Made by a program: the position numbers and the translations under genes
DNA from: Candidatus Azotimanducaceae bacterium
Lineage (GTDB): Bacteria > Pseudomonadota > Gammaproteobacteria > Pseudomonadales > Azotimanducaceae
DNA: 64,000 nt
Direction: 5' to 3'
NCBI GenBank assembly: GCA_047629195.1
Contig: JBLHWY010000011.1
Location: forward strand, 3,061 to 67,060
Notes under the pieces: generated by a model
What the model saw: the letters and a program-made list of their open reading frames with translations, nothing else
The model's database searches: none
What the model was told of the DNA's origin: nothing
Shown here: positions 5,447-48,260 of the stretch, in pieces
Layout of the letters: every line of letters begins with the position of its first letter
Position numbering within the stretch: position 1 is the first letter of the stretch

Positions 5447-5482
5447 CAGGCATCAAGCTGCCACAACGATTACGTTAATAAA

Positions 5483-5511
5483 GCGCCTTCAAGATGAAAT
5501 ATCGAAGGCGC
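5483..5511. terminator. Hairpin between convergent metY and the MBL-cNMP gene
   Basis: GCGCCTTC (5483-5490) pairs with GAAGGCGC (5504-5511). The minus-strand side is followed by TTTATTAA. Confidence 0.4.
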
Positions 5512-5541
5512 GATTAGCGTCGATTGGGTTTATCTCTGAGC

Positions 5542-7719: not shown

Positions 7720-7927
7720 TTAATTTGTTACTGGAGTGTAACTAAAGGAATAGACCGGGAACAGGCCGAAATTCCTTCATGTCGAAAATACCTTAAACTA
7801 TTTGTAGGCAGTGTGCAGTGATCGCGAAATTTCTATTTAAGAGGATTTGTCGAAAACTTGAGCATAAACGATTAGAATTCTGTATCTATGCTGTTAATAA
7901 ATAACCACAAGAATTTAGGGGAAATTA

Positions 7928-25204: not shown

Positions 25205-27757
25205 ATGACCACCATTAGTGAACAACGAATTTCTGAGCTGCTGGATACCGCAGTTGCAGGACCTCTTTCAGATGCAGATATTCTCCAGTTGTCGGAAACC
25301 AATAATACTGCAGCCTTGATGAATGTTGCCGCAGTGATACGCGATAGGGGACATCAAAATGTTGTGTCGTATTCGCGAAAAGTTTTTATTCCGCTAACGC
25401 ACCTCTGTCGTGATGTTTGTCACTACTGTACCTTTGCACAAGTGCCTAGAAAGCTGAAGGCGCCGTATCTGACGCCTGAAGAAGTATTGAAAATTGCCAC
25501 TGATGGGTCGAAAGCAGGTTGTAAGGAAGCGTTGTTTACGCTCGGCGATAGACCCGAAATGCGATACAAAGCCGCTCGGGACGGGCTGAAGGAGCTTAAA
25601 CAGGACTCCACGCTATCATATCTGCATGATATGGCGGAGTTGGTGTTCGCAGAAACGGGGATGCAGCCTCACCTAAACCCAGGGTTGATGAGCGCGACAG
25701 AATTGGCAGAGCTCAGAAAAGTATCTGTTTCGATGGGAATTATGTTGGAAAGCGCCTCGCCTCGGTTGTTGGAAAAGGGCATGCCGCATTATGGTTCTCC
25801 TGATAAAGATCCTGCCCTAAGGTTAGAGACGATTAGACTAGCAGGGGAAGCGAAGATACCTTTCACCTCTGGCATCCTAATTGGCATTGGCGAGACAAGG
25901 CGTGAGCGAATCGAGTCTTTGATCGCTTTACGTGCAGCTAATGTCGATCACGGTCATATTCAAGAAATTATCATTCAGAACTTCAGGGCGAAAGCTGACA
26001 CATTGATGGTAAATGCGCCTGAGCCTGACCTGAATGAGCTGTTATGGACGTTGGCCTTGGCAAGGATTACCTTTGGGCCGAAAATGAACATTCAAGCGCC
26101 ACCGAATTTGAGCCCAGGTGTGCTGGAACAAATCGTCGGTGCGGGGATCAATGACTGGGGCGGAGTGTCTCCGGTAACGCCTGACTTTGTTAACCCTGAA
26201 GCGCCATGGCCTCATTTGTCCCACCTTACAGACGAAACCGCTAAGGCGGGAAAGCTGCTGATTGAACGTCTGGCGATCTATCCTGACTATGCTCTTGATG
26301 TTGAAACCTGGCTCGACCCAGCGATGCAACCTATCGTACGAAGAGCGATTGATGGTGATGGTTTTGCCAGAACTGAAACCTGGTCTGCTGGAGCAGTGGG
26401 CGATCCTCCTGAGGCTGATCTCGCAAGGGTCACAAAAATTCCTCAGCGACGAGTAAGTGAAGATCTTGGTGGCATCCTAGAAAAAGCAAAATCAGGCACA
26501 GAGCTGTCTGAAAGTGAAATTGTTCGCTTGTTCAAAGCTAGAGGAGATGACTTAACCTACGTCTGTCAGGCTGCAAATGACGTCCGCAAAGATCTGGCCG
26601 GTGATGAAGTCACGTATTGTGTAAATAGAAACATTAATTACACCAATGTATGTTATTTCAAGTGTCAGTTCTGTGCTTTCTCGAAAGGAAAGATGAGTGA
26701 GAACTTGCGAGGGCGACCTTACGATCTTGATCCGGAAGAGATCATGCGTCGAACCAAAGAAGCTTATGAGCGCGGTGCAACGGAAGTCTGCCTGCAAGGT
26801 GGTATTCATCCAGAATACGACGGTAATACTTACATCGATATTTGCCATAGCATCAAGCAAGTTATTCCGGAAATGCATATTCATGCTTTCTCTCCTTTGG
26901 AAGTTTGGCAGGGAGCGCACACGCTTGGTATTAGTCTTGAGGAATACCTAGGGAAATTGAAGGAAGCTGGGCTTGGAACATTACCGGGTACCGCGGCAGA
27001 AATTTTGGATGATGAAGTTCGAGCAACACTCTGCCCAGATAAGCTCAATTCTGAGCAATGGCTTGAAGTGATGGAAACAGCGCATGGTCAGGGGTTTAAT
27101 ACGACTGCCACGATCATGTACGGTCATATCGAAAAATATGAACATATCGCTCGGCACCTGTTGAAGATTCGGCGCTTGCAAGCAAAGACCCATGGGTTTA
27201 CCGAATTTGTCATTCTTCCCTTCATACATATGGAAGCCCCGATGTATTTGAAGGGTAATGCGAGGCAAGGCCCAACTTTTAGAGAAGCGTTGCTTATTCA
27301 TGCAATATCCCGATTGGTGTTAAACCCCTTGTTCAGAAACATTCAGGCTTCTTGGACCAAATTAGGGCATGCCGGTGTTGTAGCATGTTTGAATGCTGGC
27401 GTTAATGACATCGGCGGCACCTTGATGAATGAGACGATCACGCGTGCAGCTGGTGCCAGTCATGGGCAGGAAACAAGTCCGGAGGAAATGGAGCGCATGA
27501 TCCTTTCAGCGGGTCGTCGGCCAAGACAGCGGGCAACAGACTACGGTGAAGTTAGTGAACTTCAGCAGCAGCGTGGTCGTGGTGCGAAAACATTACTTGA
27601 GCCAGAATATACCTCAGCGAAGAAATACGAACGAAAAAAGCCGGGAACGAAAAAGAAAGATCTTTATCGTCCAGGTCTAGAGTCGACGGACAAAATGCCA
27701 GACTCATCTAACGATGACCATGATGAGGACAAAATATCGAGTGCGGATATTATTTAG
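25205..27757 (+). CDS. fbiC: FO synthase, fused CofG+CofH radical-SAM enzyme (FbiC)
   Basis: Two radical-SAM CxxxCxxC motifs (CRDVCHYCTF and CYFKCQFCAF) in one 850-aa ORF. A charged C-terminal extension of about 70 aa is present. Confidence 0.9.
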   Translation: MTTISEQRISELLDTAVAGPLSDADILQLSETNNTAALMNVAAVIRDRGHQNVVSYSRKVFIPLTHLCRDVCHYCTFAQVPRKLKAPYLTPEEVLKIATDGSKAGCKEALFTLGDRPEMRYKAARDGLKELKQDSTLSYLHDMAELVFAETGMQPHLNPGLMSATELAELRKVSVSMGIMLESASPRLLEKGMPHYGSPDKDPALRLETIRLAGEAKIPFTSGILIGIGETRRERIESLIALRAANVDHGHIQEIIIQNFRAKADTLMVNAPEPDLNELLWTLALARITFGPKMNIQAPPNLSPGVLEQIVGAGINDWGGVSPVTPDFVNPEAPWPHLSHLTDETAKAGKLLIERLAIYPDYALDVETWLDPAMQPIVRRAIDGDGFARTETWSAGAVGDPPEADLARVTKIPQRRVSEDLGGILEKAKSGTELSESEIVRLFKARGDDLTYVCQAANDVRKDLAGDEVTYCVNRNINYTNVCYFKCQFCAFSKGKMSENLRGRPYDLDPEEIMRRTKEAYERGATEVCLQGGIHPEYDGNTYIDICHSIKQVIPEMHIHAFSPLEVWQGAHTLGISLEEYLGKLKEAGLGTLPGTAAEILDDEVRATLCPDKLNSEQWLEVMETAHGQGFNTTATIMYGHIEKYEHIARHLLKIRRLQAKTHGFTEFVILPFIHMEAPMYLKGNARQGPTFREALLIHAISRLVLNPLFRNIQASWTKLGHAGVVACLNAGVNDIGGTLMNETITRAAGASHGQETSPEEMERMILSAGRRPRQRATDYGEVSELQQQRGRGAKTLLEPEYTSAKKYERKKPGTKKKDLYRPGLESTDKMPDSSNDDHDEDKISSADII

Positions 27758-27810
27758 CACCGACAATAAAGTATACGCAGATTTGGATATCTAAAATAAA
27801 ACATACGAGG

Positions 27811-28815
27811 ATGATAACGATGCCAGTGCCACAAAGAACCGCACTAACACTACCTGACCCGCGAGGGGTTTTTGAGACCATAGAACTAGCTAAATGGGCC
27901 GAAGCTGAAGGTTATGATGATCTGTGGTTTGCGGATAGTTCCGGTGTTGATGCGCTCACAACTGCTGCGGCAGTGGCACTGAATACTAGTCGCTGTCGGA
28001 TTGGAACCGCCATTATACCCGTGTTTTCTCGAACGCCAGCCGTTTTGGCCTCCACGGCCCATGTACTACACCAACTCTCGGGCGGAAGATTTATTCTCGG
28101 TTTGGGTTCTTCTAGTCAAACGATGATGGAAAATTGGCACGGGCTACAATTTGAAAAGCCACTGTCACGTGTGAAAGAAACGACTCAGTTGATTAAAAGT
28201 ATGCTGAGGGGCGAGAAGAGTGATTTTGATGGCACCACGGTAAAGAGTAAAGGCTATCGGCAGCTGCCTCTGGAAGACGGTGCTCAGCCTGTCTATATGG
28301 CCGCTCTTAGAAGCAAAATGCTTGAAGCGGCGGCGGAGTTTAGTGACGGAGTCATTCTGAACTTGTTTCCGAAAGACGCATTGCCAAAAATGATGGAGCA
28401 CATCAAAATTGGTGCGGAAAGGGCAGGTAAGAAATTAGAAGACATTGAAATAGTTTGCCGACATCAAGTAATTGTTAGTGATGATAAAGAAAATGCGAGA
28501 AACTTCATTCGTCGTGGCTTTGCTCCCTATTATGCGACTCCTGTATACAATTCGTTTCTTGCGTGGGCTGGATATGAAGACGTTGCGAAAGAAATTTCAG
28601 AAGGTTGGGCGGCCAAGGATAGAGATCGCACGACGGGCGCATTAAGTGACCAATTGGTTGATGACATTGCAATTCTAGGTTCGATGGGCGAATGCCATGA
28701 CCGTATTCGAGAATATGGTGAAATGGGTATTACAACGCATATCATTTCATGCGTATCTCCTAAAGAATCGCAGGCAACTTACGAAGCATTTACGGGTAAG
28801 AACTTTAGCTTCTAA
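27811..28815 (+). CDS. LLM-class F420-dependent oxidoreductase
   Basis: Luciferase-like pattern ELAKWAEAEGYDDLWFADS...IGTAIIPVFSRTPAVLA...GGRFILGLGSS. It is adjacent to fbiC. Confidence 0.8.
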   Translation: MITMPVPQRTALTLPDPRGVFETIELAKWAEAEGYDDLWFADSSGVDALTTAAAVALNTSRCRIGTAIIPVFSRTPAVLASTAHVLHQLSGGRFILGLGSSSQTMMENWHGLQFEKPLSRVKETTQLIKSMLRGEKSDFDGTTVKSKGYRQLPLEDGAQPVYMAALRSKMLEAAAEFSDGVILNLFPKDALPKMMEHIKIGAERAGKKLEDIEIVCRHQVIVSDDKENARNFIRRGFAPYYATPVYNSFLAWAGYEDVAKEISEGWAAKDRDRTTGALSDQLVDDIAILGSMGECHDRIREYGEMGITTHIISCVSPKESQATYEAFTGKNFSF

Positions 28816-36325: not shown

Positions 36326-36603
36326 TTAGTTCCCGTCCGTAAATACTCCTTCCTGGGTGAGTTTCGGAGACTTTTCAGATCTGTTGGTTTAAAAATCAAT
36401 AGGTTGTCGGGAAGTAACCATGGAGATGTTAAGTTTTCGGATAAGGACTAGCTATCGCCTTACTCTAAGTTCCTATCCTAGATAGGGAGGTGATAACTGG
36501 CCGATCAGCTTTAACTTAATTTGTTAAAGCTGGTCCTAAATTTGCTAAAAAGTGGTAAATTTCTTCTACAATTAAATTCAAGTTCTTTTCCTAAATTAAT
36601 GTG

Positions 36604-36652
36604 AATTGTTAGCCGCCAACGAGACGTGGCGGCTAACAATTCTATTTCTTTG
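36604..36652 (+). terminator. Orphan rho-independent-terminator-like hairpin, about 280 nt downstream of the thiolase stop
   Basis: AATTGTTAGCCGCCA (36604-36618) pairs with TGGCGGCTAACAATT (36627-36641), a 15-bp perfect stem followed by CTATTTCTTTG. Confidence 0.55.
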
Positions 36653-37100: not shown

Positions 37101-39056
37101 ATGTCGGTTTGTACAACAAAAAGTTTATGTGACACTGCGATAAACTGGTTCGGGCTGAGATCGTTGACAAAAGTTGCTTTGCTATTCTTTTCCGTCATGA
37201 GCGTTTCATTAGTATCGGTTGCGAGCGCCGAGGAAATGAGCAATGATGAAATTGATGCCGCACACGCTGAGTCCTTCTTAGGTGACGGTTATCCTTCCGC
37301 GACTGAATGTGGCGAATGCCATCCTAAACAATATAAACAGTGGTCAGTATCGCAACACGCTTATGCTCAAATGAGCCCGATCTTTAATGCGATGCAAGCA
37401 ACTGTGCTTAAGTTTACCGCCGGTACCAATGGTGATTTTTGTATTCGTTGTCATACGCCCGTTGGGATGAATCTCAATGAAGATGTCTTCATGAGTAATA
37501 TTGATCGCCATCCAACATCAAGGGAAGGCGTCACATGTATAGTATGTCATCGATTAAACCAGTCATATGGCAAGGTTAGTGGCCGACTGGCGATTGAGAC
37601 CGGGCCTGTTACTTCTGCAATCTACGGGCCTCTGGGTGAGCCAGCTGAGCTAGACAACGCCATTGATAAAGGCGGTTTAGTTGTCGATAACGACAAAGCA
37701 GGTCGTAAAGTTCATGGTGAAGTTAAAGGCCTATTCCAATTAAATACCTCGGGGTTCTGTGCAACTTGTCATGATGTCAACCTGGTGAATGGTTTTCGCT
37801 TAGAGGAAGCTTTTAGCGAGTTTAAGAACAGCCCTGCCAACGCAAAAGGCGTCACTTGCCAGGATTGTCATATGGGTAAGGAGCCTGGAAAGATCCTTGC
37901 TGAAAAATCAGACCCAGATTTTTATCACAAAAATTATGATTTTGGTCCCGCCGCGAAAGTTGGAAGCCTTGACACGAAAGATCGGAAGCTAACCAATCAC
38001 ATGTTTGTCGGGCCTGACTATTCGGTATTGCCTCCTTCCTTATTCCCACTCGATATTCGGGCAATTAAGGAGGAAAGCGAGAAAGATGACGTTCGAGCAC
38101 GCGGTATGGCAACAATCCGCCAGTGGTTAGAGTTTGACTGGAAAGCAGGTTGGGGTAGCGACGACTTTGAAGACGAAGTTGATGACGATTATGAGTTCCC
38201 TGAACGATGGGCTTCGATTGATGATCGTTACGATGCACGCGAGATCATTGTTGATAATCTGAGGTTGCTCAAAGAAATTGAAATTCAACGGTTGAAGTTG
38301 CTGCAAAACGGCTACTTGATTGGAGATATCGATGTCGTCAAATCAAATTCAGACGGAATCGAATTCGCAGTTCAAGTGAAGAACGGAACCGATGGCCACA
38401 ACGTACCGACTGGTTTTGACGCCGAGAGACTCGTTTGGCTCTATGTCACAGTCACAGACGCTGATGGCAAGGTTGTAAAGACATCTGGAGACCTTGATCC
38501 GAATGGTGACTTATTAGACCTTCACTCAAGCTATGTCCACAATCACGAGCTGCCGCTAGATAAAGAGCTGTTCAGCCTGCAGTCGAAGTTTTTAACCAGA
38601 AATATCGTCGGTGGAGAAAGAGAGCAAGTGCTGCCTGTCAATTACTCCGCAAGCCCATTGATCTTCTTGCGACCTTCGCGTAGCCCAACAGTATTGGTGG
38701 GACGGCCGGGTGGTGCTCGAAAGCACAAGATGGGTATTGAGCCGCTGGGCGAACGCTGGGCGAACTATACCGTCTCATCAGAACAGCTTATTTCAGGTAA
38801 GCCGCCGTTTAAAGCAGTTGTTCAGCTGAAGGCTGCAATGGTGCCGGTTAACCTCGTAAATATTATTAAAGATGTAGGCTTCGACTACAACTTAAGTGCA
38901 AGGGAAGTTGCAGATGTGCTTGCTAATGGGCACGTTGATGAAAACGGCGATGTCGTAATATGGGATGAAGATTCCGATGATCCCGTTGATAATCAAGTGG
39001 CAGGACATCAAGTAATTTGGGAAAAAGAAGTTGATCTGTCCGCGGGTGGACGGTAG
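37101..39056 (+). CDS. Periplasmic pentahaem c-type cytochrome (651 aa)
   Basis: Signal-peptide-like ALLFFSVMSVSLVSVASA. Five CxxCH motifs (CGECH, CIRCH, CIVCH, CATCH, CQDCH). C-terminal domain contains GHNVPTGFDAERL. Confidence 0.85.
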   Translation: MSVCTTKSLCDTAINWFGLRSLTKVALLFFSVMSVSLVSVASAEEMSNDEIDAAHAESFLGDGYPSATECGECHPKQYKQWSVSQHAYAQMSPIFNAMQATVLKFTAGTNGDFCIRCHTPVGMNLNEDVFMSNIDRHPTSREGVTCIVCHRLNQSYGKVSGRLAIETGPVTSAIYGPLGEPAELDNAIDKGGLVVDNDKAGRKVHGEVKGLFQLNTSGFCATCHDVNLVNGFRLEEAFSEFKNSPANAKGVTCQDCHMGKEPGKILAEKSDPDFYHKNYDFGPAAKVGSLDTKDRKLTNHMFVGPDYSVLPPSLFPLDIRAIKEESEKDDVRARGMATIRQWLEFDWKAGWGSDDFEDEVDDDYEFPERWASIDDRYDAREIIVDNLRLLKEIEIQRLKLLQNGYLIGDIDVVKSNSDGIEFAVQVKNGTDGHNVPTGFDAERLVWLYVTVTDADGKVVKTSGDLDPNGDLLDLHSSYVHNHELPLDKELFSLQSKFLTRNIVGGEREQVLPVNYSASPLIFLRPSRSPTVLVGRPGGARKHKMGIEPLGERWANYTVSSEQLISGKPPFKAVVQLKAAMVPVNLVNIIKDVGFDYNLSAREVADVLANGHVDENGDVVIWDEDSDDPVDNQVAGHQVIWEKEVDLSAGGR

Positions 39057-39129
39057 CTATTTACTAGGCAACTTCTTCTAGGCGACTTAGAGCTATACTG
39101 GGTAGTTTGAGTCATATTTGTGTTGAATT

Positions 39130-39181
39130 TAGGCAGTATCGCCAGATTGGTTCGAGGAATTTGCTCATAACCAATCTGGCG
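39130..39181 (+). terminator. Rho-independent terminator after the pentahaem cytochrome gene
   Basis: CGCCAGATTGGTT (39130-39142) pairs with AACCAATCTGGCG (39159-39171), a 13-bp stem followed by TTTGTTGTTT. Confidence 0.65.
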
Positions 39182-39216
39182 TTTGTTGTTTAAAAAGAAT
39201 AATAGGAAAGTGGACG

Positions 39217-40671
39217 ATGGTAATGCGGAAGGATCAGCAGGTGCAAATAGGCAAGGGAAATGTGACGAGGTTCTTGAATCTACTCCCCTGTTTTATTCTT
39301 GGTGCGGGATTGGCGATTTCAAACATTGCACAGGGTGCGGGTTATAGTATTGGACCAGATGGTAAAAGAAGCAGCCGTATTTCTGACGAAGCCGTCGCGG
39401 TGCTCGATCTCGAAAGTATGCCGAGTCGACCCAATCCAATATTGGAGTTAGGTGGCGATTTTCTTGGGCCCGGTAATATTCGCAGAGGTTACGAGTTGCC
39501 CACGGGGGCCGTCTGGCAGCCCACGTTGTTGGTTTTTGGTACTCACCGAAGCGCTCTGCAGACGTTTCATTCCGACGATGAGACAACTGCTGAATTTGCG
39601 AATCGGTTGGATCTTTTTGCAAATTTGCAGCTGACCGCGTCTGAGAGGTTTGTCTTAGGGTTACGCCCGCTAGATGATGAAGGAGAATTTACTTCTTACC
39701 AGTTTGAACCAGACAATGGCTTGCCCGACGATACTGGGTGGCAAGACGAGACAAACGTCAGGGTCAATACTTTCTTTTTTGAAGGAGACTTTGGTGAAAT
39801 TTTTCCTAATTTGTCGAAAGATGACCGAAAAGCGACGGATTATGGCTTTGTGGTTGGACGTCAACCAGTTAACTATCAAGCCGGTTTACTGATTAATGAC
39901 AACATTGATGCAATCGGCGTTACTCGAAACACTTTATTACCGAAAGGCGGATCCGATCTACAGATTACCTTTATGTATGGTTGGAATGAAATTCATCGTG
40001 GTGACAGAATAGAAAGAGAAAACCAAAACCTATATGGTTTGTTCGTCAGCACCGATACGCCCAAAGCAACACAAAATTTCGACTTCCTTTACATGCAAGA
40101 TCGTAATGGTGATACAGACGGTTTCTTCTGGGGTGTCAGTGATGTTCGGAGAATCGGTCACTTTAATCTCTCTAGTCGAATTGTTGGTTCGCAGGCGCTG
40201 GATAAAGAGTCCTCGGCAATTCAAGATGGTACGCTGGTGTTTGCCGAACTATCGTGGACACCTGCTTGGACAGACGACAACATATACATTAACGGGTTCG
40301 CTGGTATCGACAATTTCAGGTCTGCTGCTCGTGATCCGGCGACCGGTGGTCCACTTGGCAGGACTGGCATTCTGTTCGCGGCAATTGGCATGGGGAGATA
40401 TGGTGCCCCTTTGAGCAATGGTGCAGACGGTTCAGTTGGTGGTGCAATTGGGTATCAGATGTTTATTAATCCGATTGTTAATCAATTCATTTTCGAATTA
40501 GGCGCTAGAAAAGGAACCAGAGCAGGGGACGATACATCAATCGCTGCAGGGGCGCGTTACCGGCATGTATTTGGGCAGCATATTGTCGCTCAGGTTGATG
40601 TGTTTGGTGCTCTAAACGAATCCCGGCCCGATTCTTACGGTGGTAGATTTGAATTACGGGTGGAGTTTTGA
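39217..40671 (+). CDS. Putative outer-membrane beta-barrel protein
   Basis: N-terminal signal-like LLPCFILGAGLAISNIAQGA. Alternating Gly/aromatic-rich segments. C-terminus ...GGRFELRVEF with a terminal Phe, typical of OMPs. Confidence 0.55.
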   Translation: MVMRKDQQVQIGKGNVTRFLNLLPCFILGAGLAISNIAQGAGYSIGPDGKRSSRISDEAVAVLDLESMPSRPNPILELGGDFLGPGNIRRGYELPTGAVWQPTLLVFGTHRSALQTFHSDDETTAEFANRLDLFANLQLTASERFVLGLRPLDDEGEFTSYQFEPDNGLPDDTGWQDETNVRVNTFFFEGDFGEIFPNLSKDDRKATDYGFVVGRQPVNYQAGLLINDNIDAIGVTRNTLLPKGGSDLQITFMYGWNEIHRGDRIERENQNLYGLFVSTDTPKATQNFDFLYMQDRNGDTDGFFWGVSDVRRIGHFNLSSRIVGSQALDKESSAIQDGTLVFAELSWTPAWTDDNIYINGFAGIDNFRSAARDPATGGPLGRTGILFAAIGMGRYGAPLSNGADGSVGGAIGYQMFINPIVNQFIFELGARKGTRAGDDTSIAAGARYRHVFGQHIVAQVDVFGALNESRPDSYGGRFELRVEF

Positions 40672-40856
40672 TCCAACAACCTGTAGCTTTACGTACTTGT
40701 AATTTTACGTATTACTAGTAGTCTTAAACAGTAATAACAGACAGCAGATAATGTGACCGGAACGGCGAGTTCCAGAGGCAATCATTTCTAGTTTGTCGAA
40801 GAAATAATAATAAAAATACATTTGATGAATTTTAGAGACAAAAGGCCTAAGCATTT

Positions 40857-42140
40857 ATGATGGCAGCACTGTTGGACAATTTGTGGGTCGGTGGGGCTAT
40901 TATAGTGATAGCCGTTACCGCATATGTACTTGTAGGCGTCACTGGCGCGTTAGCGCGGTTGGCTAACGAGAGACGCGCCAGAGAACAACAGGCAGAACAG
41001 TTTGCTTTGCAGATCAGCGGGGCAAGAAAGCAACAGCAAAAAGAAACGGGTAAATCACTTTCCTGGACCGGTACCCGAAAGTTTACAGTCGCTACCAAAC
41101 ACGTTGAAAGCACTGATGGTCAAGTGTGTTCTTTCTACCTCAAGCCCCATGACGAGAAAGCAATCCCATCATTTGACCCCGGGCAGTTTTTAACTTTTGA
41201 ACTAGACATTCCTGGAGATGAAAAAGACAGTAAGGTTAAACGCTGTTACTCGTTATCTGATGCGCCAAAAGATGGCGTATATCGTGTTTCTATTAAGCGT
41301 GTTCCCGGTCCTCGAGATCAACCGGAAATTCCAGCCGGCCTATCATCTAATTTCTTTCATGACTCGGTCAGCGAAGGCGATATATTGGATGTTCGAGCAC
41401 CGTCAGGAAAGTTCTTCCTGGATATGAACAGTGATCGTCCTATCGTCTTGATTGGCGGTGGAGTTGGACTCACCCCTGTGATGAGCATGCTCAATGCGGT
41501 GATAGCATCGGGTGGCGATAGGGAAGTTTGGTTTTTCTACGGCGTGAGGAATAGTGCTGAACATGCCATGAAAGAGCACCTCGAGCAGGTGGCTGCAGAA
41601 CATTCAAATGTCCGTATGAAAATTTGTTACAGCGCACCTTCTGACGATGATGTAATCGACGAAGACTACCATCATAAATCTCGTGTAGGTGTGCCGCTTT
41701 TTAAAGAGGTCTTACCTTCTAACAATTATCAATATTTAATGTGCGGTCCACCACCAATGATGGAATCATTGGTTTCCGATCTAGAGGAATGGGGTGTACC
41801 TAAACCTGACATAATGAGAGAAAGCTTCGGTCCTGCGTCCGGTCGTAAAGCGCCCGCGATTAAAGCCAATCCAGAGGCGGACGGTCCTGCCGTTTCCTTC
41901 AAAAAGTCAGGAAAATCAGCCCCTTGGGATCCTGCTTTTGATAGTCTCGTGAAATTTGCGGAAGCAAATGGTTGTGATATACCTTATGCCTGTTTGGCGG
42001 GCAATTGCGGTACTTGTGAAACGACCATAATTAGTGGTGAAGTCGACTATCAGGGCAACGACACTGATTTTGAACCAGAGAAAGGGACTTGCCTCGCTTG
42101 CTCCTGCGTTCCTAAGGGACCGATTGAGCTCGATGCATAA
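40857..42140 (+). CDS. Membrane-anchored FAD/NAD(P)H oxidoreductase with a C-terminal plant-type 2Fe-2S ferredoxin domain
   Basis: N-terminal TM segment GGAIIVIAVTAYVLVGVTGAL. FAD motif RCYSLSD. NAD(P) motif LIGGGVGLTPVMSM. CGPPPMM. 2Fe-2S ligands CLAGNCGTCE...CLACSC. Confidence 0.8.
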   Translation: MMAALLDNLWVGGAIIVIAVTAYVLVGVTGALARLANERRAREQQAEQFALQISGARKQQQKETGKSLSWTGTRKFTVATKHVESTDGQVCSFYLKPHDEKAIPSFDPGQFLTFELDIPGDEKDSKVKRCYSLSDAPKDGVYRVSIKRVPGPRDQPEIPAGLSSNFFHDSVSEGDILDVRAPSGKFFLDMNSDRPIVLIGGGVGLTPVMSMLNAVIASGGDREVWFFYGVRNSAEHAMKEHLEQVAAEHSNVRMKICYSAPSDDDVIDEDYHHKSRVGVPLFKEVLPSNNYQYLMCGPPPMMESLVSDLEEWGVPKPDIMRESFGPASGRKAPAIKANPEADGPAVSFKKSGKSAPWDPAFDSLVKFAEANGCDIPYACLAGNCGTCETTIISGEVDYQGNDTDFEPEKGTCLACSCVPKGPIELDA

Positions 42141-42291
42141 GTTCAAGTGATCTATTACCAAATGTAGTAATGAATAGATTGAACCGATCGAATTAAACTG
42201 AGATCGGTAATATAATGAGATTTTTAAAACTAGGTCTGCAAATATAACCCTGCAGACAACGATTACGACAAACCCAGAGAGGTGTTTCACA

Positions 42292-43407
42292 ATGACAGCC
42301 ACGTTACTTCCAAAAAATATTCCTGCAAATGGAATAGGAAAAGCATTCAAGGTGTTGATAGCATCCTGCGTACTTATGGCTTTTAGTGCGTCCGTTTTTT
42401 CAGCAACAGCCGGAACATGGTTGACTGAAGATGAAGAAAAAGCGATGGCCGCGAACATTGTTGGTCCTACCAAGAATGATGACAATTGTTCTTCGTGTCA
42501 TGCTTTAGAAACTGAAGCCTGGGAAAACACGCGTCATTTCGCCACTTTTAAAGATCGTCATCGAACTGACCGAGCAAAAGAAATTCTTGAAAACATGGGC
42601 GAGAGGAGCATGAAACGTGCCGCAGATTGTCGCCAATGTCACTATACTTCTGAATTGAAGAATGACAAATTACGAGCATCTTTTGGTGTGAGTTGTGAAT
42701 CATGTCATGGTGCGGCAAAAGAATGGCTGCCAATCCACTCTAAAGGCGGCGGCGATCTTAGCGCCTCTGATCTTAAATGGGGTACAGGTAAATCTCAGGA
42801 TCCAGCGAGCAGGTTGAAACGACTAGCGGCAGCTGAGGCCAAGGGCATGATCAATTCTGAAATGATTTATGATATCGCTAAAAACTGTTTTGGCTGTCAT
42901 ACCGTTCCGAATGAAAATATTGTCAATACGGGCGCTCACAAAGCCGGAAGCGATTTTGATCTTGTTGCTTGGTCTCAGGGCGAGATTCTCCACAACTTCT
43001 CCAGTTCCGCCGGTGCACCAGATACCCCCAACAACAGACCTTCGACTGCAGAGCAAAAACGACGCCTCTATGTCACAGGCTTAATGGTTGACCTTGAAAC
43101 TTCTCTAGCCAATATCGGTAATGTTAAAGAGAAGGGTGGCAATTTCCACGTGGCAATGGTTGAGAGAGCTAATAAGGTTCGAGGCCAATTAGATGCTGTG
43201 TTAGGTGCTGTTGCGATAAGCGAAATCGCTGCTAGTCTTGGCGCAGTACCTTCACCGATTCAGGAATCTACGATGGTTGGCGCAGACCTCCCGATGAACT
43301 TGGGCATGGCGGCTAAGGCTTTTCTTAATTCACATGACGGGACAGCGCTATCTGCTCTTGATGGCCTGATGCCTACTGAGTATAAAGGTTCACCACACAA
43401 ACAGTAA
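42292..43407 (+). CDS. Periplasmic tetrahaem c-type cytochrome
   Basis: Signal-peptide-like LIASCVLMAFSASVFSA. Four CxxCH motifs (CSSCH, CRQCH, CESCH, CFGCH). Confidence 0.8.
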   Translation: MTATLLPKNIPANGIGKAFKVLIASCVLMAFSASVFSATAGTWLTEDEEKAMAANIVGPTKNDDNCSSCHALETEAWENTRHFATFKDRHRTDRAKEILENMGERSMKRAADCRQCHYTSELKNDKLRASFGVSCESCHGAAKEWLPIHSKGGGDLSASDLKWGTGKSQDPASRLKRLAAAEAKGMINSEMIYDIAKNCFGCHTVPNENIVNTGAHKAGSDFDLVAWSQGEILHNFSSSAGAPDTPNNRPSTAEQKRRLYVTGLMVDLETSLANIGNVKEKGGNFHVAMVERANKVRGQLDAVLGAVAISEIAASLGAVPSPIQESTMVGADLPMNLGMAAKAFLNSHDGTALSALDGLMPTEYKGSPHKQ

Positions 43408-43474
43408 TATGAGCTGAGCGTGTTGTGTTACACAAGAATATAAGCAGCATTATTAATAGCTGTAATTAAAAAGG

Positions 43475-45352
43475 TTGGACGCATTGGCAGAAGTGCAGGC
43501 TCAGTTACAGACTCAAATGAGAGACAAGCCCAAGCGTTGGGATTTGCCATTCAGTAGAGATTTACCGAATGAGATCGAGTGCAGGGATCTAACGGAAAAA
43601 GAGCTTGATGATCTACTTGAAATCGAGCCGTTTTCTAAAATGGATGCCTCCAAATTTCCGAAGTCTTTACCGCTTCGAGAAATTCTACGCAACGATACAC
43701 GGACACGGGTCTATCACAACGGTGATGCTGTTGTTCGTGTAGGTGATTACGGCAATTCTGCTTTCATGATTCTAGAAGGTGATTGCAGAGCCGTTATTGA
43801 AGGTCTTGATCCAAGTGCTTTGGGTCGTGGTAAAAAACAACAACGAAGCGCACTCGACTCTTTAATGAGTCTTTTCTCCAATCCAAAATCTCCCGAAGTC
43901 AGGGATCCGAGCTTGTATCCGCAGTTTGCCGAAGCGCAAACTGCTAAACCTTCTTCAAGTTCAGGTAGAGTTTTTGCACAGGATGTGCCCAACGTACTTG
44001 AGCTTTTCCCTGACACCTATGAAAAAACCCAAAACAATGTCATGCCTCAAGGTAGCCTGTTTGGCGAACTAGGAGCACTTGGCCGGGTTCAGCGAGCAGT
44101 CACTGTGCTTGCTTCCGATCCGACCCGTACGAAACTGTTAGAGATTCGTTGGCAGGGACTAAGAGACTTAATGAAGTTTGATGGCGCGCTAAGAGCGCAC
44201 GTCAACCAATTGTTTCGTTCAAGAGGATTGTTAGGTGCACTTCAAAGCTCACCTTTACTGCAATCTGCGAATCTCACGGCAGAACAGTGGGAACAAGTTG
44301 TTGCGGAGGCTGAGTTCGAGACCTTCGGTTCCTATGACTGGTATGGTAGTTATCAACAGCTACGTCAAAAAGACGTAGATCCTTTGTCTCAAGAACCCAT
44401 TGTTTCGGAAAAAGGCCAGTATCCTAACGGTCTTGTACTCGTCCGCGCAGGCTTTGGTCGACTGAGCCGACAGCACGGTTATGGTGAACATACATTTGGG
44501 TACTTGGGTAAGGGCGATGTCTATGGTCTGTCTGAGCTCATGCACAATGCTGAGTCAGACACTCAGATGGAGCTACAAGCGACCTTGAGGGCTGCTGGTT
44601 ACATGGACGTTGTTCGAATACCGACTCGAACATTTGAGAAGTTGATTTACCCATCGCTTAAGAATGCCCAGTCGCGAGGCGATCTTCCAAACTCAGTTGG
44701 GGGAGAAACCCTAGATAATCGAAGGGATGAGACGATATCTTTACTCGATGTAGATACGAGCAAAGCTGATGTAAAAAAGGCCGAGGCGAAAAAGGCCGAC
44801 GCTGAAAAGAATAATCTCGATCCATCCATGATGGAGTTTTTAGTAGAAAACCGAGTGATCAACGGCACCCAGACGATGCTCATTGATCTGGATCGATGTA
44901 CACGTTGCGATGAGTGTGTCAAAGCATGCGCCAGTGGTCACAGTAACAATCCACGTTTTGTACGCCATGGACGAATTCATAGCCATTATATGGTTGCCAA
45001 CGCCTGCATGCATTGTGAAGATCCTGTTTGCATGATTGGTTGCCCTACCGGCGCTATTCACCGAACAGAAGGTGGTGGTGAAGTTGTAATAAACGATCTG
45101 ACTTGTATTGGCTGCAGCACGTGTGCCAATAGTTGTCCCTACGAAAATATTAGAATGGTCAATGTTAGAGATCAGTCGAATGAGGTCATGCTAGATCCGC
45201 AAAAAGGTCGACCCATTGTAAAGGCTACGAAATGTGATTTATGCGTTAGTCACCATGGTGGTCCGGCGTGTGAGCGAGCATGCCCGCACGATGCCCTAAA
45301 GCGAGTGGACATGAATGATTTGGACTTGCTGTCAGATTGGTTTAATCGATGA
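43475..45352 (+). CDS. Cyclic-nucleotide-binding-domain protein fused to a DmsB/NrfC-like 4x[4Fe-4S] ferredoxin module
   Basis: cNMP signature GSLFGELGALGRVQRAVTVLA, plus a second degenerate domain. Four Cys clusters: CTRCDECVKAC, CMHCEDPVCMIGCP, CIGCSTCANSCP and CDLCVSHHGGPACERACP. No twin-arginine or other signal sequence at the N-terminus. Confidence 0.8.
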   Translation: MDALAEVQAQLQTQMRDKPKRWDLPFSRDLPNEIECRDLTEKELDDLLEIEPFSKMDASKFPKSLPLREILRNDTRTRVYHNGDAVVRVGDYGNSAFMILEGDCRAVIEGLDPSALGRGKKQQRSALDSLMSLFSNPKSPEVRDPSLYPQFAEAQTAKPSSSSGRVFAQDVPNVLELFPDTYEKTQNNVMPQGSLFGELGALGRVQRAVTVLASDPTRTKLLEIRWQGLRDLMKFDGALRAHVNQLFRSRGLLGALQSSPLLQSANLTAEQWEQVVAEAEFETFGSYDWYGSYQQLRQKDVDPLSQEPIVSEKGQYPNGLVLVRAGFGRLSRQHGYGEHTFGYLGKGDVYGLSELMHNAESDTQMELQATLRAAGYMDVVRIPTRTFEKLIYPSLKNAQSRGDLPNSVGGETLDNRRDETISLLDVDTSKADVKKAEAKKADAEKNNLDPSMMEFLVENRVINGTQTMLIDLDRCTRCDECVKACASGHSNNPRFVRHGRIHSHYMVANACMHCEDPVCMIGCPTGAIHRTEGGGEVVINDLTCIGCSTCANSCPYENIRMVNVRDQSNEVMLDPQKGRPIVKATKCDLCVSHHGGPACERACPHDALKRVDMNDLDLLSDWFNR

Positions 45353-46173
45353 TTACGTTTAAGAAGAGACGAACGTGGGGTCTAACGATATCAGTCATTC
45401 TAGGCTCACTGTTTGCCATCGTGATGCTTGCCTATTCGGTGATGCTAAATAACACAGCCTTTTTCTCTGGGTGGGTTTTATTCACCTTGATGATTTTCCT
45501 AACACTTTACAATGCCCGAAAAAAACTGACTTACCCGCCTTTATTTAAATCTGCTAGCTGGATGCAATTTCACATATACGCAGGACTTTTGTCTTTTCTA
45601 GTATTCTTTTTTCATACGGGATGGCGATTGCCTACCGGGATGTTTGAGTCGACCTTGTACTTGATGTTTATTGTCTTAGCGGGTTCCGGATTTATAGGTT
45701 TGTATCTCACTAGAACCGTGCCTAAAAGCCTGGCGCACAGAGGCAACGAGGTTATCTATGAAAGAATCCCTCGTTTCGTAAAAGAATTGAGAGAGCAGGC
45801 CGAGGCATTAGTGATTGAGTCAGTTGGTTTTAACGATTCAACAATCTTATCTGACTACTACAGTGAAAATTTAGCAGAATATATGTCGCGCCCGAGAAGA
45901 TTTGGGTTGCACGTTTTTATGGTAGATAGAATGCGTAATGAGTTCCAACGCGAGTTAGGTGCGCTACACCGCTACATGAACGAAGAAGAACGACGGGTCG
46001 CAACACAACTTTCAGACGTACTTGTGCTCAAAGACGATTTGGATTTTCATTACAGCCGACAAGGTATGTTGAAAGGCTGGTTGTTTCTTCATGTACCACT
46101 AACCTACGGCCTACTAATCTTTGCTGCTGCCCACATGGTGCTTGTGCACGCGTTTTATGGGGGATTGTCGTGA
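45349..46173 (+). CDS. Five-TM membrane protein with two His-x13-His pairs (candidate dihaem b-type transmembrane electron carrier)
   Basis: The start overlaps the upstream stop (ATGA). TM3 is FHIYAGLLSFLVFFFH. TM5 is LHVPLTYGLLIFAAAHMVLVH. A soluble loop of about 120 aa separates TM4 and TM5. Confidence 0.7.
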   Translation: MITFKKRRTWGLTISVILGSLFAIVMLAYSVMLNNTAFFSGWVLFTLMIFLTLYNARKKLTYPPLFKSASWMQFHIYAGLLSFLVFFFHTGWRLPTGMFESTLYLMFIVLAGSGFIGLYLTRTVPKSLAHRGNEVIYERIPRFVKELREQAEALVIESVGFNDSTILSDYYSENLAEYMSRPRRFGLHVFMVDRMRNEFQRELGALHRYMNEEERRVATQLSDVLVLKDDLDFHYSRQGMLKGWLFLHVPLTYGLLIFAAAHMVLVHAFYGGLS

Positions 46174-48260
46174 GAATCCCATTACAGGAAATTGGTTTCA
46201 GAGATAGTGTTTATGAACGACCCAATCAGGATTGGGTTTGTGGTTGGTCTGCTGATGGTAATCCGTGTTTGCACGGTCCCGACGGAGATGGGCTTTGCTC
46301 TACCCAAGCTCAAGCTAACTGTAGTCCTGTAAAGGAAGCAGACAGGTGGGTTTGTACCCGAGCTGAAGCTTTTGGCGGTCCTTGTACCGACGGTCCGCAA
46401 CCGGATGGCAGTTGTGCCTGTCCCACCCCCGAACACCTCGTATGTCAACCGCAGAGAAATATCCGAGCAAAGCGTGGTCTACTCACGAAACTTGTGACGA
46501 TACTGTCATTAGGATTCTTAGTCCTGATGTTCAGCGGCTCATGGAGCCAAAGTTTTGTCTCCCCGGGTACACTCAGCCCATCGCATTTGGCGATTGAGGG
46601 AGTTGATGGAGGTGACAATTGTTCGTCGTGCCATCAGGCTGGCAATACCAATTGGAGCACATGGCTGAGCCTCGCGCTAAAAAGCTCTGATGCCGAAAAT
46701 ATGCATGATACTAGCGCAACGTTGTGTCTAGATTGCCACTTTAAAGATGATGAAGAGGGGCTTGCTCAGTCTCATTTTGTACACGGTGTGGCACCTTCAC
46801 TGCTTGAAAAAATCACGCTTGAGAAGACGTTAGTAGATTCTGATGGTGCTGCCAGTAGTGCCACTGAAGGTCGACTCATGGTTGCTAAGCTAGTGCATGG
46901 ACCTAAGGAAAATTCGACCGGTGAAATTGCCTGTGCAACCTGTCACCAAGAGCATCGTGGGTTGGAACATGATCTCCGTCAAATGGGTGATTCTCAATGC
47001 CAGTCTTGCCACAAGTCTTCTTTTAACAGCTTCAACGACGGCCACCCTCAGTTTACGCCCGTCGAGCGGTTAAATTCTGGTATCTCGTTTGACCACTCAA
47101 AGCACCAAGAGCGATTTGATGGTGGCGAGCTTGTCTGCGGAAATTGTCACGAGGCAGATTCATTAGGCAGGACCATGAATGTTAAAGCCTTTGAAAGCAC
47201 CTGTGAGGGCTGTCATGAGCAAGGTTCTGATGATCATCACGGTGATGCGCTTAAAAAGAATCCATTGTTATTACTGCAACTACCAGAAGTTGAATTTGAA
47301 GGTGATGTTTATTGGCCCAGTGAAAATGCTTTCGGCGAAGCACTAACGCCAATGATGGCAATGCTCTTAGCTGGAGACGATGAAGCGCTGCCAATAATCG
47401 AATCTATCTATGACGAAGACGGGGCCGCTGGCGATTTATATGAGTGGTTGATAGAAACTGACGACAATGATGAACCGGAACTGAGAGAAGAGTTTGCCGG
47501 TGCGCTGAAGCGATTGGTCGCAGATCTTGCTGATTATACTGATGACGGAGATAAGGCCCGAGTTACGCGGCTAGCTAAAGCGTTAGGTGCAATCGAAAGC
47601 GATCCAAATGTTAGAAGCATGGCTGATGAGCTCGCATCCGCAAATTTTGTGATGCAAAGCTTCAAGCAGCGATATCTTCCGCAATTATCAGAGGATCTTG
47701 CCGGTGAAGAGGTTTCTGCAGATGATGACGAGCAACCTGAAACACAATGGATGACCTCGTCAACGATGAGTGGTTGGCGCGTAGATTCTGATGAAGGCAC
47801 CATTAGCTACCGTCCGGTTTCTCATGCCGATAGCCTGATGAAAAATTGGATTGATGCACTAAAGGTTCATAGTACTAAAACAGTGCCGGAAGGAACTGAT
47901 GATGCGACTTTAGCGAGAGCTAACTTGAGGCAGACGCTCTATAGCGAGCTAAAAAACGACTTCAATGCATGTACCAAGTGCCATACTGAGCAGGATAACG
48001 CGATAAATTGGAAAGCAGCAGGTAGAGCGACGGGCTGGTCTGGTTTTGCTAAATTTGATCACAGTCCTCATATTGCTATGCTGCCTGGTCAGGAAAGCTG
48101 TACAACCTGCCACATGCTTAATACAGAAAGTGGTCAAGAAGAGAGTTTGCCCAGGGGCTTTATGCCGCATGAAAATGAACGTTGTGAGTCTTGTCATGCA
48201 CCTGGACGCGCGAATAATACGTGCCTAAACTGTCACCAGTATCACGAGCATCGGCCTTAA
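46170..48260 (+). CDS. Membrane-anchored decahaem c-type cytochrome with an N-terminal Cys-rich domain
   Basis: The start overlaps the upstream stop (GTGA). Ten CxxCH motifs (CSSCH, CLDCH, CATCH, CQSCH, CGNCH, CEGCH, CTKCH, CTTCH, CESCH, CLNCH). TM anchor LVTILSLGFLVLMF follows RNIRAKRG. Confidence 0.85.
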   Translation: MRIPLQEIGFRDSVYERPNQDWVCGWSADGNPCLHGPDGDGLCSTQAQANCSPVKEADRWVCTRAEAFGGPCTDGPQPDGSCACPTPEHLVCQPQRNIRAKRGLLTKLVTILSLGFLVLMFSGSWSQSFVSPGTLSPSHLAIEGVDGGDNCSSCHQAGNTNWSTWLSLALKSSDAENMHDTSATLCLDCHFKDDEEGLAQSHFVHGVAPSLLEKITLEKTLVDSDGAASSATEGRLMVAKLVHGPKENSTGEIACATCHQEHRGLEHDLRQMGDSQCQSCHKSSFNSFNDGHPQFTPVERLNSGISFDHSKHQERFDGGELVCGNCHEADSLGRTMNVKAFESTCEGCHEQGSDDHHGDALKKNPLLLLQLPEVEFEGDVYWPSENAFGEALTPMMAMLLAGDDEALPIIESIYDEDGAAGDLYEWLIETDDNDEPELREEFAGALKRLVADLADYTDDGDKARVTRLAKALGAIESDPNVRSMADELASANFVMQSFKQRYLPQLSEDLAGEEVSADDDEQPETQWMTSSTMSGWRVDSDEGTISYRPVSHADSLMKNWIDALKVHSTKTVPEGTDDATLARANLRQTLYSELKNDFNACTKCHTEQDNAINWKAAGRATGWSGFAKFDHSPHIAMLPGQESCTTCHMLNTESGQEESLPRGFMPHENERCESCHAPGRANNTCLNCHQYHEHRP

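Follow-up and report, generated by a model that had tools for sequence, protein, structure and literature searches.

Closest described systems

The closest described counterpart of the locus considered here is the ptdABCDEFG operon, which was named in a 2023-24 preprint whose accessible text rests on bioinformatics and metatranscriptomics only (bioRxiv 10.1101/2023.11.21.568154). The locus itself lies at positions 37101 to 48260 of a 64,000-nucleotide stretch of DNA (the window) of contig JBLHWY010000011.1 (assembly GCA_047629195.1), from a metagenome-assembled genome (MAG) of the gammaproteobacterial 'Ca. Azotimanducaceae'. In the annotation of the preprint, PtdB is a porin, PtdC an FAD/NAD(P) oxidoreductase, PtdD a periplasmic tetrahaem cytochrome, PtdE an Fe-S protein that binds cyclic nucleotide monophosphates (cNMP), PtdF a ferric-reductase-like membrane protein, and PtdG a decahaem cytochrome. 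The hosts given in the accessible text are Alpha- and Gammaproteobacteria, Nitrospirales, and Planctomycetes of saline habitats, and Table S7 also lists cultured hosts (Roseibium aggregatum, Abyssibacter profundi, Tistlia consotensis, and Sulfidibacter corallicola), with isolates from seawater, coral, and marine microalgae. In Alphaproteobacteria of oxygen-deficient zones (ODZ), ptdAB transcripts reach ~500-900 FPKM (fragments per kilobase per million) in anoxic water, and a porin-cytochrome role in extracellular electron transfer (EET) is proposed (bioRxiv 10.1101/2023.11.21.568154). A full-text literature search found no other paper with the ptd name or with this combination of genes.

Parts of the ptd inventory resemble those of other systems. 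Like ptd, the MtrCAB, PioAB, and MtoAB systems pair multihaem cytochrome genes and a periplasmic relay with a gene for an outer-membrane protein (OMP). However, MtrB is a 26-strand sheath of ~700 aa around the decahaem MtrA, whereas PtdB has 484 aa and is modelled with 18 strands; the ptd decahaem, PtdG, is anchored in the inner membrane, whereas the MtrA-type decahaem is soluble; and the ptd input would be an NAD(P)H flavoprotein rather than the CymA-type quinol dehydrogenase of Mtr-type systems. In the NOX/FRD proteins, including MsrQ-Fre and the DUF4405, PepSY, and FezC relatives, a cytoplasmic NAD(P)H flavoprotein delivers electrons to two stacked b haems and on to the outer face, which is the likeness to ptd (PMC11334425). 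Unlike these, ptd has a flavoprotein that is separate, anchored by a transmembrane (TM) helix, and equipped with its own 2Fe-2S cluster; it interposes a four-cluster ferredoxin with cNMP-binding domains; and its acceptor is a decahaem cytochrome c.

MccSep (ExtKL) of Geobacter sulfurreducens is a periplasmic polysulfide/selenite reductase with its active site at haem 2, and its gene adjoins that of the porin-like ExtI, an arrangement paralleled by PtdA beside PtdB. MccSep and the pentahaem cytochrome c552 have in common with PtdA a five-haem N-terminal domain and an immunoglobulin (Ig)-like C-terminal domain. Finally, the Tmc and Hmc complexes of sulfate reducers combine periplasmic multihaem cytochromes c, a membrane cytochrome b, and cytoplasmic Fe-S proteins with no obligatory quinone step, as ptd would. 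Their proteins belong to families unrelated to those of ptd (membrane subunits of NarI/NrfD type and Fe-S proteins with CCG domains, versus FRD-like and HycB-like proteins in ptd), and the accepted direction of Tmc/Hmc is inward, from periplasmic H2 oxidation.

By its gene order and domain content, the cluster in the window is a gammaproteobacterial copy of ptdABCDEFG: the sequence pentahaem, porin, FAD-NAD(P) reductase, tetrahaem, cNMP-Fe-S, ferric-reductase-like, decahaem is matched throughout. The marine habitat is common to both, Gammaproteobacteria are among the listed hosts, and there is no essential difference. The cluster is real and conserved, a further member of the ptd family is present in the window, and the claim of an 'unrecognised architecture' made in an earlier, sequence-only reading of this DNA has to be withdrawn, since the same gene order and domain content had already been published (bioRxiv 10.1101/2023.11.21.568154). 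The present analysis, besides correcting that claim of novelty, separates a conserved core from swappable output modules. A PtdC-E-F-G core, a mobile PtdA-PtdB pair, an 18-strand PtdB, a most-conserved PtdA, and an eight-cysteine (Cys8) domain in PtdG all go beyond the accessible text of the preprint.

The ptd cluster of the window

The sequence-only reading had described seven co-directional genes, and the open reading frames were found exactly where it placed them, all on the forward strand. The cluster and its boundary are composed as follows.

36603 to 36642, strand not assigned: perfect hairpin with a 16-bp stem, a bidirectional terminator-like boundary upstream of the ptd cluster
37101 to 39056, forward strand: ptdA (g1), secreted pentahaem cytochrome c with a five-haem domain, an insert, and a C-terminal beta-sandwich region
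39217 to 40671, forward strand: ptdB (g2), modelled outer-membrane beta-barrel of ~18 strands, 484 aa, with a conserved N-terminal periplasmic extension
40857 to 42140, forward strand: ptdC (g3), N-terminally membrane-anchored NAD(P)H:FAD:[2Fe-2S] reductase, catalytic part predicted to be cytoplasmic
42292 to 43407, forward strand: ptdD (g4), soluble periplasmic tetrahaem cytochrome c, c554-like
43475 to 45352, forward strand: ptdE (g5), cytoplasmic protein that joins tandem cNMP-binding domains to a HycB/HydN-type 4x[4Fe-4S] ferredoxin domain
45349 to 46173, forward strand: ptdF (g6), membrane protein with five TM helices, candidate di-haem b cytochrome
46170 to 48260, forward strand: ptdG (g7), predicted cytoplasmic Cys8 domain (aa 1-100), TM helix (103-121), and periplasmic decahaem domain
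46170 to 46475, forward strand: Cys8 domain of PtdG (aa 1-102), with eight conserved Cys

The hairpin lies between an upstream thiolase gene and ptdA, inside a 775-nt non-coding gap, and has T-rich flanks on both strands. Within the cluster, ptdE and ptdF overlap by 4 nt at ATGA and ptdF and ptdG by 4 nt at GTGA (stop/start), as had been noted earlier; the remaining intergenic gaps measure 160, 185, 151, and 67 nt. A terminator scan detected no terminator-like site on the forward strand in these four gaps, and Rfam, repeat, and terminator scans gave nothing relevant within the cluster. The GC content of the cluster (0.43-0.48) is similar to that of its flanks, so that composition does not indicate recent horizontal acquisition. 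A motif count returns the 19 CxxCH motifs of the earlier reading (5 in PtdA, 4 in PtdD, and 10 in PtdG) and no CxxCK motif in the ptd cytochromes. In this work, domains were assigned with Pfam and NCBIfam models, and signal peptides, TM helices, and topology were derived from a hydropathy scan and the positive-inside rule.

A conserved core with exchangeable output modules

A profile search finds relatives of PtdF in 431 species-representative genomes. The loci of the 80 best of these, all of them MAGs, define the conservation described here. The 80 genomes belong to Pseudomonadales, Planctomycetota, Verrucomicrobiota, Myxococcota, SAR324, Poribacteria, Latescibacterota, Lentisphaerales, and Rhodospirillaceae, with one Flavobacteriaceae MAG, and the cluster is spread over at least 8 phyla. 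The PtdF of the window is 100% identical to a hypothetical protein of a 'Ca. Azotimanducaceae' MAG (Pseudomonadales) and is also present on several contigs from marine metagenomes. An identical gene order in many phyla means that the adjacency of these genes is not due to chance, and the earlier description of the seven genes as one conserved functional unit stands. A loss of synteny among relatives, which had been named beforehand as evidence that would count against that description, is not seen.

All seven proteins match co-localized genes in MAGs of Rhodospirillaceae, Planctomycetota, Verrucomicrobiota, and Gammaproteobacteria, a range that includes taxa listed in Table S7. In a Rhodospirillaceae locus from Saanich Inlet (L054), C-E-F-G are found with D, B, and A on the opposite strand, an order that equals the accession order of the Rhodospirillaceae SI074_bin72 row of that table.

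Components of the cluster differ greatly in how often they are present. By tblastn, PtdG is found in all 80 loci, PtdE in 79, PtdC in 69, PtdD in 52, PtdB in 24, and PtdA in 22, and a complete seven-gene cluster in 20. The genes ptdE, ptdF, and ptdG overlap or abut. Thus, the invariant unit is PtdC-E-F-G, and this core has a much wider distribution than the seven-gene form described in the preprint. The position of PtdC can be filled by another protein: in locus L087 it is held by an unrelated flavoprotein composed of Pyr_redox_2, FHA, and Fer2 domains, which argues that the position conserves a role, namely an NAD(P)H flavoprotein with a 2Fe-2S cluster. The ptdD gene usually accompanies the core; it is duplicated in Planctomycetota, and in its place Verrucomicrobiota carry a 3-haem relative, encoded on the opposite strand. 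The ptdA and ptdB genes travel as a pair, which can flank the core on one side or the other and on either strand, and constitute a mobile output module.

In Verrucomicrobiota, ptdA and ptdB are absent and two other genes, x8 and x9, follow the core, forming a tight C-E-F-G-x8-x9 operon in locus L021 (6367-12299); 14-15 other Verrucomicrobiota loci (e.g. L036, L044, L045, L065, and L076) also carry the core with the x8/x9 module. The x8 product has 730-840 aa, a signal peptide, and at its C-terminus the OMP-typical signal ...TFTY, and the x9 product has 1,240-1,390 aa, 10 haems, and LVIVD repeats; a gene for an HbpS-like protein (x7) is often nearby. Homology of x8 and x9 to PtdB and PtdA was rejected (hhalign probabilities 0.3 and 5). 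The x8/x9 pair is an alternative output module for the same core. Verrucomicrobiota of peat are reported to express porin-multihaem clusters (bioRxiv 10.64898/2026.05.27.727921, accessible text). The clusters called 'EET3/EET4' there may equal the x8/x9 module.

Conservation also differs from protein to protein. Cofactor ligands are invariant: the 16 Cys of PtdE, the 4 Cys of PtdC, the 4 His of PtdF, and the CxxCH motifs of PtdG. Among the 20 complete clusters, PtdA ranks first in conservation in 17, with a mean identity of 58.5%, and PtdG is the least conserved of the seven proteins (36.3%). A protein that is conserved above all its partners, including a decahaem wire that varies most, suggests an enzyme rather than another wire.

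Proteins of the core

PtdC contains FAD_binding_6, NAD_binding_1, and Fer2 domains and one N-terminal TM helix (residues 14-32) followed by a basic stretch, in agreement with the TM-anchored FAD/NAD(P)H/2Fe-2S reductase described earlier. Its nearest structures are the reductase domain of flavohaemoglobin (1cqx, E 3e-46), NqrF, and phthalate dioxygenase reductase, and the 2Fe-2S ligands Cys379, Cys384, Cys387, and Cys415 are invariant in homologues.

PtdE combines a Pfam cNMP_binding domain (residues 309-391) with Fer4 dicluster domains. A second cNMP-binding (CNB) domain, split by an insert, lies N-terminal to the one reported by Pfam. In the family consensus this first CNB domain has a canonical phosphate-binding cassette (FGEiaAL...RtATv), at which point the protein of the window reads RAVTV. 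Only two strict CxxCxxCxxxC motifs are present. However, the 16 C-terminal Cys fall in four groups and are 98-100% conserved among 63 homologues, and PtdE therefore carries four clusters, as the sequence-only reading had it, rather than the two of the preprint. The four Cys groups are those of the HycB/HydN/DmsB-type four-cluster ferredoxins, and the best matches of the Fe-S domain are HydN (E 8e-19, NCBIfam) and HycB3 of the hydrogen-dependent CO2 reductase (HDCR) structure 7qv7 (E 2e-19), followed by subunit 2 (HycB) of formate hydrogenlyase (FHL). The hydropathy scan detected no TM helix, signal peptide, or Tat motif in PtdE, which bears out its description as a protein without export signal. 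The four clusters and the tandem CNB domains refine the published annotation.

Signalling genes adjoin the core at two of the loci. FHA-domain proteins follow ptdG on the complete-genome-sized contigs of L087 and L089, and genes for a CHASE2 nucleotide cyclase and for a cNMP-binding Ser/Thr kinase lie immediately upstream in L089; the features noted span 19485-21773 of L087 and 4220-7901 and 19343-19681 of L089. Together with the FHA domain of the L087 flavoprotein, these neighbours hint that cNMP and phospho-Thr signalling regulates the ptd system.

PtdF has five hydrophobic segments and, as noticed earlier, two His-x13-His pairs, H75/H89 and H248/H262. All four His are invariant in 22 sequences from several phyla. 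With the N-terminus predicted to be cytoplasmic, TM3 carries one pair and TM5 the other, and in both pairs one His is close to each membrane face. The NOX/FRE/MsrQ superfamily has the same arrangement of two His pairs, and PtdF resembles the NOX/FRD proteins in that the pairs, ~13 residues apart, are carried by two TM helices. Within the family, 11 of the 22 sequences weakly match DUF4405 (best E 2.3e-6) and Ni_hydr_CYTB (b561), and 4 match Ferric_reduct. Haem b binding has been shown for DUF4405, and DUF4405, PepSY, and FezC relatives are tied to iron redox handling (PMC11334425). The His pattern, with the weak matches of relatives, makes PtdF a candidate di-haem b cytochrome of the FRD/NOX/MsrQ/DUF4405-like kind.

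PtdG has, as described earlier, one TM helix (103-121) and 10 CxxCH motifs; a basic stretch precedes the helix. On the predicted cytoplasmic side of this helix, eight Cys within residues 24-92 are 98-100% conserved in 57 homologues. This Cys8 domain has no Pfam family and is not mentioned in the accessible text of the preprint, where PtdG is 'periplasmic' by PSORTb (bioRxiv 10.1101/2023.11.21.568154). In a library of 1.84 billion proteins it occurs in 583 representative clusters. Among the matches listed, it stands at the extreme N-terminus in 150 of 150, mostly in proteins of 550-1,100 aa, the shorter ones looking like fragments. One possible role of the domain is that of a metal or Fe-S site at which PtdE docks. 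No solved relative of PtdG was found by sequence; Pfam and NCBIfam place c554/c7/c3-type haem domains in PtdG as well as in PtdA and PtdD.

Proteins of the output module

The N-termini of PtdA, PtdB, and PtdD are signal-peptide-like. PtdD matches Cytochrome_C554 (E 4e-13, Pfam), has 4 CxxCH motifs, and is a candidate shuttle between PtdG and PtdA.

The sole solved relative of PtdA is the pentahaem cytochrome c552 of T. tepidum (5ZE8), which is matched over all five haem motifs (HMM E 7.4e-16), with a second HMM match in the Ig-like region. The AlphaFold2 (AF2) model of PtdA, although of low confidence, finds 5ZE8 by Foldseek (E 4.6e-7, TM-score 0.55 normalized to the target). Sequence and fold thus place PtdA in the c552 fold group, with a five-haem domain followed by an Ig-like domain. 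PtdA is ~200 aa longer than c552 and includes an insert of ~150 aa. MccA and MccSep are only marginal matches.

Several established cytochrome classes were tried for the ptd proteins. Membership in NrfA, HAO, OTR, MtrA, DmsE, and MccSep was rejected, with the curated models far below their cutoffs. As NrfA, PtdA lacks CxxCK and scores 15.4 bits with PF02335 (Cytochrom_C552) against a cutoff of 24.1. As MccSep, it scores 43 bits with NF040886 against a cutoff of 250, and neither the distal haem-2 Cys nor the Sec/Cys is found. The MtrA/DmsE decahaem model TIGR03508 is absent from PtdG and hits only PtdA, at 33.7 bits versus a cutoff of 192.2. The only invariant Cys of PtdA in 28 homologues are the ten of its CxxCH motifs; because there is no conserved Cys outside these motifs, and hence neither the haem-ligating Cys nor the Sec/Cys of MccSep, PtdA is not an MccSep-type enzyme. 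The haem-2-ligating Cys239 of MccSep, and a Cys of c552, align opposite a conserved R-L-E-E of PtdA (R233-E236; window 37797-37808); at E 0.01 this alignment is so weak that it counts only as a lead. On this alignment, haem 2 of PtdA may have a different, non-thiolate distal pocket. The most likely role of PtdA is that of a terminal reductase acting on a small substrate, either periplasmic or extracellular.

The earlier description of PtdB as a beta-barrel-like OMP of 484 aa ending in RVEF agrees with its AF2 model (pLDDT 74.5), an all-beta barrel with 18 long strands. PtdB has no Pfam, NCBIfam, or PDB sequence match, so that only the fold is informative, and the parallel with ExtI is one of gene position. 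The Foldseek neighbours (E 3e-13 to 1e-9) are 18-strand channels: MOMP of Campylobacter (5ldt), ChiP of E. coli (7vtz), AlgE (3rbh), and the OprD/Occ family (OccK/OccD). No MtrB-type sheath appears within the Foldseek top 50, and with 18 modelled strands PtdB does not fit the ~26-strand sheath of MtrAB-type systems. The strand number refines the published porin annotation.

Proposed electron path and its direction

We infer the individual electron-transfer steps from gene order, domain content, ligand conservation, predicted topology, and modular synteny. In the explanation that we consider best, and to which we give an even chance, the cluster encodes a two-module chain that exports electrons from the cytoplasm. 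Membrane-anchored PtdC would oxidize NAD(P)H and pass electrons through FAD to its 2Fe-2S cluster. Cytoplasmic PtdE would relay them through its four [4Fe-4S] clusters, a relay possibly gated by the tandem cNMP-binding domains. Two stacked b haems of PtdF, with the His pairs of TM3 and TM5 as ligands, would carry them through the inner membrane, and PtdG, anchored beside PtdF, would take them onto ten periplasmic c haems. Soluble PtdD would then shuttle electrons to PtdA, the pentahaem protein of the c552/MccSep fold group, acting as terminal reductase, and PtdB would admit or release the substrate or product of PtdA across the outer membrane, or anchor PtdA there. The chain that had been proposed from the sequence thus keeps its course from NAD(P)H through FAD, 2Fe-2S, 4x[4Fe-4S], and haem b to the periplasmic cytochromes, which is consistent with domains, predicted topology, and conservation, whereas its outer-membrane step is weakened by the 18 strands of PtdB.

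The membrane potential helps electrons to leave the negative (N) side of a membrane for the positive (P) side. Outward flow is favoured on this ground and because NAD(P)H is a strong reductant. A chain of this kind would dissipate energy, which suits classical respiration less well than it suits a redox sink or a reductive service function. By analogy, PtdC-E-F-G resembles a 'split NOX' that has been extended by a polyferredoxin and a decahaem cytochrome. A bolder form of the proposal, which we offer tentatively and hold plausible though short of probable, is that the core represents a new class of cNMP-gated, NAD(P)H-driven, quinone-independent inner-membrane exporter with interchangeable output modules (PtdAB in marine lineages; an OMP and an LVIVD decahaem in Verrucomicrobiota), and that PtdA is a new multihaem enzyme for a small molecule.

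Several points weigh against this export chain. The Ptd proteins are without any published experiment, and the accessible text of the preprint states that the function of ptd 'remains completely unknown' (bioRxiv 10.1101/2023.11.21.568154). The PtdF of the window reaches no Pfam or NCBIfam model, the matches within its family are weak, it has five predicted TM helices rather than the six of NOX/FRD, and no solved relative was found by sequence. The Ni_hydr_CYTB members FdnI and HyaC are quinone-reactive, and since half of the PtdF family weakly matches Ni_hydr_CYTB, quinones may be involved. The AF2 model of PtdA is poor (pLDDT 60.6), so that haem ligation is unreadable and no open haem coordination site is demonstrable. 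Three of the gaps between ptd genes span 151-185 nt, which makes a single transcript for all seven genes an assumption. Finally, Cyc2 is a fused monohaem cytochrome-porin with a predicted small barrel; by analogy this suggests that a small barrel alone does not exclude that electrons cross the outer membrane. The x8/x9 module resembles a true porin-cytochrome conduit more than PtdA-PtdB does, and thereby favours an EET reading for the family as a whole.

If NAD(P)H electrons are indeed exported without quinones, ptd would represent a new route for redox balancing, reductive nutrient acquisition, or extracellular reduction. This route would serve abundant, mostly uncultured lineages: PtdF relatives occur in at least 431 species-level genomes of marine, sponge-associated, groundwater, soil, and peat bacteria. 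Since cultured hosts exist, the hypothesis is directly testable.

Alternative explanations

The main rival, which we judge unlikely for the window but still a serious contender, is a dissimilatory porin-cytochrome EET conduit in which PtdA, or PtdD with PtdA, sits in or on PtdB and passes electrons to acceptors outside the cell (Fe(III)/Mn(IV) minerals, humics, or partner cells). In its favour, the OMP gene adjoins a multihaem gene and the two move together. The ptdAB transcript levels in anoxic ODZ water (bioRxiv 10.1101/2023.11.21.568154, accessible text) point the same way, and the rival gains from the Verrucomicrobiota, where the core is linked to an OMP of MtrB size and to a 10-haem protein whose LVIVD repeats are of a cell-surface type. 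The expression of porin-multihaem clusters in peat Verrucomicrobiota would add to this if they are the x8/x9 clusters. For the window, however, the conduit is weakened by the small barrel of PtdB, with its solute-channel neighbours and no MtrB sheath within the Foldseek top 50, and by the enzyme-like conservation of PtdA, a protein of ~600 aa with at least two domains that is conserved the most while the wire PtdG is conserved the least. PtdA also has no lipobox and no conserved N-terminal Cys. With an NAD(P)H flavoprotein as its input, in place of a quinol dehydrogenase, a conduit would conserve no energy, and the isolates of Table S7 are presumably aerobic marine heterotrophs.

An assimilatory or protective periplasmic reductase, which would be a specific choice of acceptor inside the export chain, is improbable; its task would be reduction of Fe(III) chelates for uptake, NOX-like conversion of O2 to extracellular superoxide, or removal of a toxic oxidant. 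The pairing of an NAD(P)H flavoprotein with a di-haem b protein, His pairs on TM3 and TM5, follows NOX/FRE/MsrQ-like logic, and the ties of DUF4405, PepSY, and FezC relatives to iron redox handling (PMC11334425) are in keeping with it. The signalling elements of cNMP and FHA type suggest regulated, non-constitutive use. Among the hosts are isolates obtained from seawater, coral, and marine microalgae, which we take to be aerobes. Against this, no TonB receptor, FeoB, or Fur box was seen beside the cluster, in the window or among recurrent neighbour families; an 18-strand channel is small for a siderophore complex; and 19 c haems seem too many for superoxide production.

Still more doubtful is a nitrogen-oxide enzyme, with PtdA as an NrfA- or HAO-like nitrite, NO, or hydroxylamine reductase fed by the other Ptd proteins. 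According to the accessible text of the preprint, PtdA is in COG3303 together with NrfA, ptd occurs in nitrite oxidizers (Nitrospina, Nitrospirales), and it is expressed in ODZ bacteria that transcribe nod (bioRxiv 10.1101/2023.11.21.568154); in addition, PtdC resembles the reductase domain of flavohaemoglobin. However, PtdC has no globin domain, PtdA has no CxxCK and stays below the Cytochrom_C552 cutoff (15.4 versus 24.1 bits), the NrfB and NrfH models are far below theirs, and the sole solved relative of PtdA is c552, the function of which is itself unknown.

Reverse operation, in which electrons from an external or periplasmic donor would reduce NAD(P)+ (the electron uptake that the sequence-only reading had also allowed), is highly improbable: all cofactors are reversible in principle and the accessible text of the preprint places ptd in lithotrophic nitrite oxidizers, but P-to-N transfer through stacked b haems would be opposed by the membrane potential as well as uphill in redox terms, the cluster contains no subunit for proton or sodium coupling that could meet the cost of NAD(P)+ reduction, and most ptd hosts are presumably heterotrophs.

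Other features of the window

Two further loci of the window encode proteins with redox or cNMP-binding domains. At 25205-28815, a fused radical-SAM protein of 850 aa whose C-terminal region is CofH (an FbiC-like FO/F420 synthase) is encoded beside a luciferase-like monooxygenase, which suggests F420-related chemistry in this gammaproteobacterial MAG. At 5542-7719, on the reverse strand, a 725-aa protein combines a cNMP-binding domain with a region of metallo-beta-lactamase fold and is a second cNMP-binding protein in the window.

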